Shown one piece after another: positions 21,301 to 24,300 of a stretch of DNA of 64,000 nucleotides. A model generated the notes under the pieces. That model saw only the letters and a list, made by a program, of their open reading frames with translations. It was not told the DNA's origin and did no database searches. Origin of the DNA: Cetorhinus maximus (taxonomy: Eukaryota); assembly GCF_964194155.1 (NCBI RefSeq), contig NC_135890.1:53072001-53136000 (forward strand), read 5' to 3'. The stretch's first letter is position 1. Every line of letters starts with the position of its first letter. The position numbers were made by a program, and so were the translations under genes.

Positions 21301-24300
21301 ATTCTATTTGCACCATTCGTATTGATCAATTTGTCAACAAGTGAAATCAGCCTTTTCGTTCAGCCATTCCTAACACACCAAGTGATTTTTAACTTGCATA
21401 AAATATTCCAGCAGCAAGGTAGTGGAATGTTTATTTTGCTGTATGGGTCATTTCTTCATAGCAACCTCTGGACACAAAGCTTCACAGTGAGAGCATCTAT
21501 CATGAATATTCTGACCAGTGTGCCCTCATATGAATTTCCCCACATTAAAGTTAATGGACCAAGAAAAGACTCCATGCCAGTTTTGTTAATCTCAATGGAG
21601 TTCCCAACATGTACTGCCGTTATGTGCTGCTTTGTGGTAGGAGCTTTAATCTTTACTCAACAACAAAAGATGTTTGGAAAAAAAAGTCAAACACAACAAA
21701 GTTGAAACATTCACGATGCTGACTTTGCGGTTGTATTTGTGTGAAAGCTGAAAGTCCTGATTATTACAAGACCTTCAGCTGTCATGGTGGCTACAGATCA
21801 GAGATGAGGAATTTGCCTCAACACCATTCGTCTATTCAAAAATAAAAGCCCAGCCTTGCCATGAAACCTATGGAACCTTTCACAGTTTCAAAAAGTTCAA
21901 AGTACTACAAGCAGCTCATAGTAACACATGGGGTTGTTTTAAACTGCCCTCCTGATCCCACAACAAGCCCAAAGAGAACAGGGCATTTAGGAATTTCAAA
22001 TTGGAGCAATGCCCTACTCACAGCGGCCATGGCTACTTCGCACTGTTTTCCAAAGTGGGGCTCTGGCCAGAGTGCGAGGGCCTCAATAAAATGCAAAAGA
22101 GGGCATCAGATGGTGGCATTCAGAGCCCCAACAGGATTTTAACACTCAGTCACATGTCAGGAGCTGGATTCTCCAGCAAAACCTGGTGCAAAAGGCCCAG
22201 AAGAGAGCCAAGAAGTAAGTATATATATTGTTTAAACAGAAACAAAAAATTCTGGAAAAACTAAGCAGGTCTGACAGCATCTGTAGAGAGAAAGACAGAG
22301 TTAACGTTTTGAGTCCGTATGACTCTTCTTCAGAGGGGCGTTAGAGGTGCTCTGAAGAAGAGTCACACAGACTCGAAACGTTAACTCTGTCTTTCTCTCC
22401 ACGGATGCTATCAGACCTGCTGAGTTTTTCCAGCATCTTTTCTTTTTGTTTCAGAGTTCCAGCATCTGCAGTATTTTGCCTATATTTTTTAAAGGTTTTT
22501 CTTGCGTGTCAGTGGGGAGAAGGACTGAAGTGCTTACCAGGTGGCTGGGAACCATCTCCTTGGGTCTCTTGCAGGGGCCTGCTGCCACGATTTCTGTTCC
22601 TGCCCAGCCATTCTGACAGATAACTTTGGGGGGAGTAAGTCCTGGGATATAATAATGCAGCCCGACGATTAAAAGGGATGAATTGTCTAGTCACGATTCT
22701 CTGGTCATCATGGTGTGTGGGACGGGCTTGATAGACCAGCAGGTCATTTCCTGCTGTCCAATTTTGTAGGTTCGTATGCTGTGCACTCATAGCCTTCTAA
22801 TGCCCCTCCTCATTCTTCTAGTTGCCTTTGCTGATTTACTGATCAGTTGAAATAATCTTTCATTAAACCAGATCCTTCATAATTTTGAAATCATCTCTCA
22901 GATATCCACATCTTAACTCTTCCTGACCCCAAATATTCAAACCTTTCTTTACAACTAGAACAAATTCAACACTTGAATCTGGAAACAACCGTTAGGAGAT
23001 GGTCTAAAATGTGCTAGCAGTTACAAATGAGGTGATCTCAAAAGAAGCTTTGTACCTGGGGTGCCAGTATCACTTTCTCCTAGAGACATAAGGTTGTGGG
23101 CTCAAGTTCCACGTCTGAGATTTGAGGATATAATACAGGTTGGCATCCCAGGTCAGCACTTTCAGATGCTGTCTTTCAGATGAGATATTAAACAGAGGCC
23201 ACATCTGCCCTCTCAGGTGGATGTAAAAGATCATGTTTTGACCAATATTTATCCTCCAGCCTACTACACTATATCATTACACAGGATTATACAGGATATA
23301 CGGCACAGAAACTGGCTATTCAGCCCAACCAGTCTATATTGGTGTTTATGCTCCAGCCGAGCCTCTTTCCATCTTTCCTCATCTAAATCTACCATCATAA
23401 CCATCTATTCCCTTCTCCCTCTTTTGCTTGCCTAGTTTCCCCTTAAATGTATCTATACTATTCACTTCAACTACTCCCTGTGGTAGTAAGTTCCACATTC
23501 TCACCACTCTTTGGATGAAGAAGTTTCTTCTGAATTCCCATTGATTTGTTGTTGACTATCTTACATTGATGGCCTCTAGTTATGCTCTTCCCAACAAGAG
23601 GAAACATTCTCTCTGTATCCGCCCTATCAAAACCTTTCAAAAATTTTAAAAACCTCTGTTAGGTCACTCCTCAGCCTTCTTTCCACCCCACCCCTACCAA
23701 CCAAGAGTAAAGAGACCCAGCCTGTCAATCCTTTCCTGCATTTCTGGCAACATCTTTGTAAATCTCTGCAACCCCCCCCAGTGCTTCTATATTCTCTTTA
23801 TAATATGGTAACCAGAACTGAATGCAATACTCTAAATGTAGTCTAACCACATCTCACTGCTGTTTGTGGGAGCTTGCAGTGTGCAGATTGACTGCTGCAT
23901 TTTCTACGTTACAGCAGTGACTACCCTAAAATATATCTCATTGGCTGTAAAGCGCTTTGGAACGTCCTCAGGTCATGAAAGGTGCTATAAAAAGTCTTTC
24001 CCTTTTTTACTCAAAACTCCTCAAACATAAGTTGATCTGATCTGATTTCACTTACCTTTCTTGTTCCAGTCCTCTACAGATGTTGTGCTTGATCCGCCCT
24101 CGTTCTTCTCAGACAGTTTTTCCATCTTCTTCTTTAGTTGCTGCTTCCTTTCCTGCAGCACCTGCTGTCTCTCCAGCAGTTCCTGCATCTGGACCTCCAA
24201 GGCCTGCATCTCACTGTCAACCAGTGCCAATTGCTCCTCCAGGTCTGTAAAGGTGCAATTTTTAATCAAGAGGCTGATGTCACTCTGCCAATTTCATTGG

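Follow-up and report, generated by a model that had tools for sequence, protein, structure and literature searches.

A hammerhead motif in a truncated, probably Neptune-type Penelope-like insertion within a RECQL intron of Cetorhinus maximus

An intron of RECQL in Cetorhinus maximus holds an inverted repeat with a hammerhead ribozyme motif. The locus raises the questions of what kind of element brought the motif there, whether it can still cleave, and whether the host gene makes any use of it. The motif is real, and both it and the insertion that carries it belong to known kinds. In our preferred reading, to which we give a probability of about 0.85, the locus is one old, truncated insertion of a Neptune-type Penelope-like element (PLE), composed of two pseudo-LTR (pLTR) ends placed head to head, with a motif that is likely inert in the RECQL intron. 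Five features were observed directly: a target-site duplication (TSD), arms placed head to head, a tail on one side, a sequence shared with the ends of ORF-bearing elements, and a broken helix I. The locus is ordinary repeat debris and reveals nothing special about RECQL. Its value lies in being a clean footprint of Penelope integration, one that fits the internal priming on uncut RNA described in vitro. Positions refer to the window, i.e. the whole stretch of 64,000 nucleotides of contig NC_135890.1 that was analysed.

The insertion and its hammerhead motif

RECQL lies on the minus strand. An exon within 20341-20613 matches human RECQ1 structures with an E value of 1e-26, far above the match to BLM or RECQ5; the coiled-coil exon upstream, with its GT donor at 24055, is joined in frame to the acceptor at 20592. 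The insertion in this intron is 244 bp long, and ORF sequence is absent from it. It consists, in order, of a TSD, an inverted arm, a filler, a direct arm with a tail of about 30 nt, and the second TSD (Table 1), which is the layout of insertions by endonuclease-bearing (EN+) PLEs: an inverted 5'-truncated copy, a one-sided tail of 30-40 bp and a TSD. As an inverted repeat, the arms span 22234-22335 and 22350-22451, 102 nt each; they are 89% complementary (11 of the 102 positions differ) and are separated by a 14-nt spacer. Relative to C3 of the hammerhead core, the left arm stops at -2 and the right arm at -3.

Table 1. Features of the RECQL intron insertion (positions in the window)
Feature	Position	Strand	Remarks
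Host RECQL intron	20592..24055	-	About 3.46 kb; insertion about 1.6 kb from either end
Left target-site duplication	22224..22236	.	13 bp, 1 mismatch vs right copy; TSD scan, locus L001
Inverted 5'-truncated pLTR arm, tail-less	22234..22335	-	Minus-strand core, C3 at 22333; sense to RECQL pre-mRNA
Left-arm defects	22310	-	G12>A at 22310; helix I partner absent
Junction filler between heads	22336..22348	.	Stands in place of the family's upstream pLTR (TTTAG)
Direct pLTR arm	22349..22451	+	Begins 3 nt 5' of core
Canonical minimal hammerhead core	22352..22382	+	CUGAAGA, extra A, 5-bp stem II, GAAA, palindromic ACGU, GUU triplet; antisense to RECQL; cleavage predicted 3' of 22382
C3 of core	22352	+	First base of CUGAAGA
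Unpaired A	22359	+
Stem II	22360-64/22370-74	+
G12	22375	+
A15.1-C-G-U16.1	22378-81	+
H17	22382	+	U
Helix I 3' strand	22383..22386	+	Pairs with 22348-22351 at 2 of 4 positions
Penelope tail	22452..22480	+	Right arm only
Right target-site duplication	22481..22493	.

An initial annotation, made from the letters of the window, had described an intact minimal type I hammerhead with a palindromic stem III in one arm of a hairpin and a mutated copy in the other. Re-reading bears out the motif in every element claimed for it, namely CUGAAGA, the 5-bp stem II, GAAA, the palindromic ACGU and GUU. The right arm has the minimal hammerhead (min-HHR) core of CUGANGA, GAAA and U-H, with the unpaired A22359, the G22360-C22374 pair and the palindromic C-G at 22379-80 all present. 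The left arm is, as annotated, its reverse complement with GAAA changed to AAAA, and this G12>A substitution departs from the min-HHR core. The inverted repeat and the minus-strand RECQL exons confirm the inverted layout and the strand assignment. The hairpin likewise has the arms of about 100 bp and the spacer ascribed to it; the broken helix I of the motif, the TSD and the one-sided tail had been overlooked.

The word "intact" applies to the canonical core, but not to the ribozyme. Min-HHRs require a helix I of 4-5 bp, and the locus copy has an A-U pair, a mismatch, a C-G pair and a second mismatch. Helix I of the right arm is broken by the truncation at -3, the filler having removed its position 2.4. 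The antisense arm is therefore not the intact ribozyme that had been set against the mutated sense copy, even though the strands and the G12>A change were correctly read. Further, the motif is predicted to be buried. In equilibrium folding, the whole insertion gives -151 kcal/mol on the plus strand and -156 kcal/mol on the minus strand, with a stem II pair probability of 0.0 on both, such that the 102-bp hairpin would conceal the motif on either strand. Given the head-to-head geometry, the antisense arm is transcribed first on either strand, and the motif would probably be captured in a duplex of about 100 bp during transcription. An antisense RNA initiated separately within the filler would escape the hairpin.

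Outside the hairpin, free fragments of 65-91 nt, including the one put forward in the initial annotation for a cleavage assay, fold into non-hammerhead structures. A search for a second same-strand motif that would allow a dimer fold found none nearby, the nearest same-strand copies being degenerate and more than 9 kb away. We consider it unlikely, though conceivable, that the right arm, transcribed without the left, retains low and biologically irrelevant cleavage as an intermolecular dimer. In favour of this, its core is canonical and both stem II and the palindromic stem III are present, and minimal PLE hammerheads are described as cleaving weakly even as dimers (passages of PMC4209133 and PMC6765202). 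However, the modelled active dimer with the locus helix I reaches only -2.5 kcal/mol, versus -12.7 kcal/mol for L082, a copy with a complete helix I, and -27.9 kcal/mol for the locus copy's own best cofold. Loss of function thus remains our preferred reading of the motif.

Rfam scans of 5 kb and of 75 nt returned no hammerhead family at E values up to 10. The initial annotation had named the lack of a covariance-model hit as grounds for rejection, and to the letter this is what the scans gave; since the Penelope link is seen directly, we do not take the missing match as a refutation. The only Rfam matches were non-hammerhead hairpin look-alikes, far below their cut-offs.

The closest known relatives of the motif are the min-HHRs in the pLTRs of metazoan PLEs, such as fish Neptune, Poseidon and Xena elements (Cervera and De la Pena 2014, PMC4209133). 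According to the available text of that study, they share with the locus the CUGANGA/GAAA/UH core, an unpaired base between positions 9 and 10.1, the G10.1-C11.1 pair, the palindromic 15.2-16.2, the pLTR position, and an occurrence as thousands of solo copies and as opposite-strand pairs. Sharks are not among the genomes named for min-HHRs in that text. The locus differs in that the insertion junction cuts its helix I short; most copies of its subfamily, moreover, carry a C.A mismatch in this helix.

Relation to Neptune-type elements

The sequence of the locus sits at both ends of long Neptune-type PLEs that encode a reverse transcriptase (RT), a CX4CxxC motif and a GIY-YIG domain. The Penelope-type origin proposed in the initial annotation therefore holds, the same sequence forming the termini of ORF-bearing elements. 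Among the 30 best DNA matches, seven (L007, L008, L019, L020, L022, L026 and L030) have an upstream pLTR in common, and the longer of these run into an ORF whose end encodes a GIY-YIG-like domain and a CX4CxxC linker; in the seven matches, the locus sequence lies 350-480 nt 3' of the stop of an RT/GIY-YIG ORF. A protein search with an ORF fragment yielded 99,747 first-look candidates, 150 of which were scored. Of 20 loci selected by their ORF, 19 have a hammerhead-like motif 3' of the ORF stop; such a motif also occurs about 190 nt before the predicted ATG in three of the 14 upstream stretches fetched (L117, L118 and L120). Long copies with a hammerhead-bearing pLTR at both ends are represented by L117/L034, L118/L035 and L120/L042. 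Pfam detected RVT_1 in the long-copy ORF above the cut-off (E 2.9e-7) and GIY-YIG weakly, below it (E 0.0028); a scan of two ORF fragments of L026 found nothing. The EN+ trait of an RT and C-terminal GIY-YIG ORF linked to the terminus is thus found in the relatives and is absent from the locus copy.

The repeat is the pLTR of an endonuclease-bearing PLE. Its assignment to Neptune is probable, and depends on the cysteine linker between RT and GIY-YIG. A CX4CxxC occupies this place in L081, L082, L083 and L085, in keeping with the CX2-5CxxC that, in the available text of PMC8557442, marks Neptune and is shared with Nematis. An inverted head-to-head layout with a tail is known for Penelope elements, and the locus resembles the described EN+ and Neptune-clade insertions in its head-to-head arms, one-sided tail and short TSD (parts of PMC8557442, PMC3846280 and PMC2377424). 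The TATA- and initiator-like motifs of the pLTR and the cysteine linker of the long copies are further likenesses to what those texts describe, whereas the locus copy is cut down to 244 bp and has no ORF. The initial annotation had spoken of a non-autonomous retroelement. Sequence comparison identifies it as the pLTR terminus of elements that have an ORF, and the locus appears to be a truncated pLTR, not a separate non-autonomous family.

The repeat is abundant. A 35-nt pattern of the intact core has 2,605 exact matches in the 4.0-Gb genome and its reversed control has none, so the matches are not due to chance; a 40-nt pattern downstream of the core has 6,189. A directly adjacent inverted partner accompanies nine of 30 pattern-selected copies and nine of 40 scored DNA matches. 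Across 30 distinct copies (the 30-copy samples used throughout cover the initial 27 Mb of a single contig), the stems are 93.6% paired, versus 18-38% when slid; stem II is 98.7% and helix I 87.3% paired. Covariation is thin, with two pairs showing changes on both sides, in one sequence each, and a paired fraction as high as this arises in 24 of 500 shuffles. The family fold therefore rests on the known consensus and the slide controls, not on covariation. The 5' bases of helix I are AGCT, with one mismatch, in 19 of 30 copies of the locus subfamily and AGTT in six of 30; copies linked to an ORF mostly have AGTT, which gives a helix I of 4-5 bp. At the level of the family, the AGTT lineages thus possess the complete helix I of a min-HHR.

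Origin and age of the insertion

Arms in the family end at two tail boundaries, near +96 to +104 or near +131 to +137 from C3. At the other end, 13 of 30 copies retrieved with a 3' pattern starting at +43 begin at -8 to +1, and no start among the 30 falls within 2 nt of the cut site (+31), the nearest being two copies at +35; in two cases, this sample counts both arms of a single insertion. When copies were selected by their core, 15 of 30 start within 10 nt of C3. A TATA-like motif stands at -33 from C3 in 37 of the 41 copies in which the motif search found one.

These starts could also be read as the mark of a distinct family. In that case, units of about 140 nt, hammerhead plus tail, would constitute a non-autonomous family, SINE-like or retrozyme-like, that the Neptune protein mobilises in trans; the insertion would be a dimer of them. 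The sharp 5' start in those 13 and 15 copies and the existence of thousands of copies agree with this. We nevertheless regard it as improbable: the upstream TATA-like motif is missing from the short units, their variants are those of the ORF-linked pLTRs, and about a third to half of the copies extend further into the pLTR or ORF. The non-LTR retrozymes of animals are, like the locus, derived from PLEs, non-coding and equipped with a type I hammerhead, but they are defined by head-to-tail tandem repeats with a hammerhead in consecutive units, as opposed to the head-to-head pair with TSD and tail seen here (available text of bioRxiv 10.64898/2026.07.22.740005).

For a truncated Neptune-type insertion, we propose the following course of events. 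The GIY-YIG endonuclease of the element would have cut A/T-rich DNA with a 13-bp stagger, and the RT would have primed on both target ends at two internal RNA start sites, at about +100 and about +135 from C3. Both cDNAs would then have run off near the 5' end of the RNA, 2-4 nt before the core, and the two heads would have been joined via a short filler. Because both cDNAs would have run off the RNA 5' end just before the core, the template was presumably uncut at the hammerhead. Judging from the genomic ends and the motifs, the element RNA would start some 4 nt 5' of the core. The motif of the parent element may cut as a dimer or with the help of an element protein. Self-priming fold-back, as discussed in parts of PMC3846280, could also have made the inversion.

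That the arms share a start just before the ribozyme and end at two tail boundaries fits the internal-priming model derived in vitro. For an anole element, the RT is described as starting at two internal sites and extending both strands, and hammerhead cleavage as dispensable for insertion (available text of PMC11167929). This element, PAc, a Poseidon of Anolis (Frangieh et al. 2024, PMC11167929), also has two 3' ends about 35 nt apart downstream of the hammerhead, and no insert ends at its cut site. It differs in its clade and in that its ORF starts inside the hammerhead, whereas in the present family C3 precedes the predicted ATG by about 190 nt.

In pLTRs such as those of L112, L118 and L120, the stretch from -36 to -1 from C3 has a TATA-like box about 30 nt before a TTAGTT or TCAGTT. 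We take TTAGTT or TCAGTT to fit the initiator consensus. This is the site at which many short copies begin, and its AG also resembles a splice acceptor. Use of this conserved AG as a splice acceptor, which is the case in D. virilis, is unsupported here. Contigs from three presumed-RNA sets and one DNA set, which cannot show transcript starts, gave no GT-AG joint ending before the core in the 5' region of L120 among the 15 of 59 joints listed. By eye, no upstream exon common to the truncated copies was found, and a cap-derived extra G at the 5' junctions was not clearly seen.

The insertion had been called young. Its two arms differ from the majority of 30 family copies at seven of 90 and five of 90 non-CpG positions, similar to the family's median divergence of 6.8% outside the search pattern. 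In a second species (organism B), contigs from three studies cover both junctions: on the left they extend from the flank 23 nt into the arm, and on the right they begin 29 nt inside the tail and continue into the flank, the interior of the element being unbridged; their flanks differ from the locus at 17 of 360 and 16 of 350 letters (about 4.6%). No joint skipping the element was found in organism B among the 15 of 359 joints listed. The insertion thus appears to be shared by both species and older than their split, and the attribution of a young age is not upheld.

The host gene and variation of the core

G12, the base changed in the core of the sense arm, lies in a CpG, and genome-wide exact matches number 882 for G12A, 783 for the sister CpG change and 36 for the non-CpG change A13G, beside the 2,605 intact cores. 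Set against the 36 for A13G, these counts indicate that one CpG change on one arm is to be expected by chance. The asymmetry between a dead sense copy and an antisense copy with its core preserved is thus what CpG decay would produce by chance.

A use of the insertion by RECQL would require that the antisense arm cut antisense RNA, or that the duplex be edited or affect splicing, with the sense ribozyme lost by selection. The persistence of the insertion in two species, the predicted duplex of about 100 bp in the pre-mRNA and the antisense orientation of all four main RECQL insertions in the window (n=4) are compatible with such a role. We think it very improbable, as G12A is of the commonest kind of neutral change, the sense arm also lacks helix I and would not need silencing, and both arms have drifted like ordinary copies. 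A host-co-opted hammerhead is expected to be single-copy, conserved beyond neutral expectation and in sense orientation; here there are 2,605 cores, a dead sense arm and drift at the level of the family. The intronic hammerhead of amniote RECK is ultraconserved, single-copy, canonical and in sense orientation. The RECQL motif resembles it in lying within an intron, and differs from it in being one of thousands, minimal, antisense and in RECQL, not RECK. Chance decay within an inert, truncated Neptune-type insertion remains the reading that we prefer.

The minus strand of 22237-22451 would form a near-perfect duplex of about 100 bp in the pre-mRNA, which is a possible substrate for A-to-I editing in the manner of inverted Alus. 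At least seven more degenerate pieces or arms of the same repeat lie in the window. The four main RECQL insertions (near 860, 6586, 12426 and 22349, on the plus strand) are too few for a test of their antisense bias. The element has several acceptor-like pyrimidine-AG stretches, and sense copies may for this reason be purged. Elsewhere in the window, a GOLT1B-like exon occurs at 36224-36574 on the plus strand, and translations at 16200-18800, 29900-30700, 51700-54300 and 57500-59100 contain what we take to be fragments of LINE-like RT/endonuclease reading frames.

When the core pattern is relaxed, exact matches across the genome number 41,275. The canonical A6 is present in 9,513 (23%), and the locus copy belongs to this minority; the other 31,762 (77%) lack it. 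Among the first 100 matches listed, position 6 is U in 63, A in 19, C in 16 and G in two. Most of the long copies selected by their ORF combine U6 or C6 with a complete helix I. In other hammerheads, A6C strongly lowers Mg2+-dependent cleavage; A6U is absent from the available text of that study (PMC7151607). A search of the literature on A6U or CUGUUGA hammerheads and on shark Neptune elements found no description of these variants, although supplementary catalogues, such as that of the retrozyme preprint, in which one chondrichthyan was sampled, may include the family.

It is possible, if doubtful, that uncut RNA is the source from which the dominant Neptune lineages spread, its capped 5' end supplying the first four bases of helix I, and that about three quarters of the copies changed A6 to U or C with their stems kept. 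The fold would then serve the element protein as a structural signal that is slow, gated or does not cut, as opposed to a constitutive ribozyme. If so, the genome holds a natural allelic series for testing what Penelope hammerheads do; their role in vivo could be tested with its A6, U6 and C6 subfamilies.

Two same-strand arrays of the core are candidates for retrozyme-like head-to-tail arrays, judging by their arrangement. One (G000:C1:111509347-111509475) has three copies with a 47-nt period, and the other (G000:C2:154007636-154021240) has at least six copies 0.7-9 kb apart. Lastly, L070-L077, on contigs C24 and C2053, are eight near-identical copies of one inverted insertion with common flanks; since the flanks are shared, they lie in a segmentally duplicated region.
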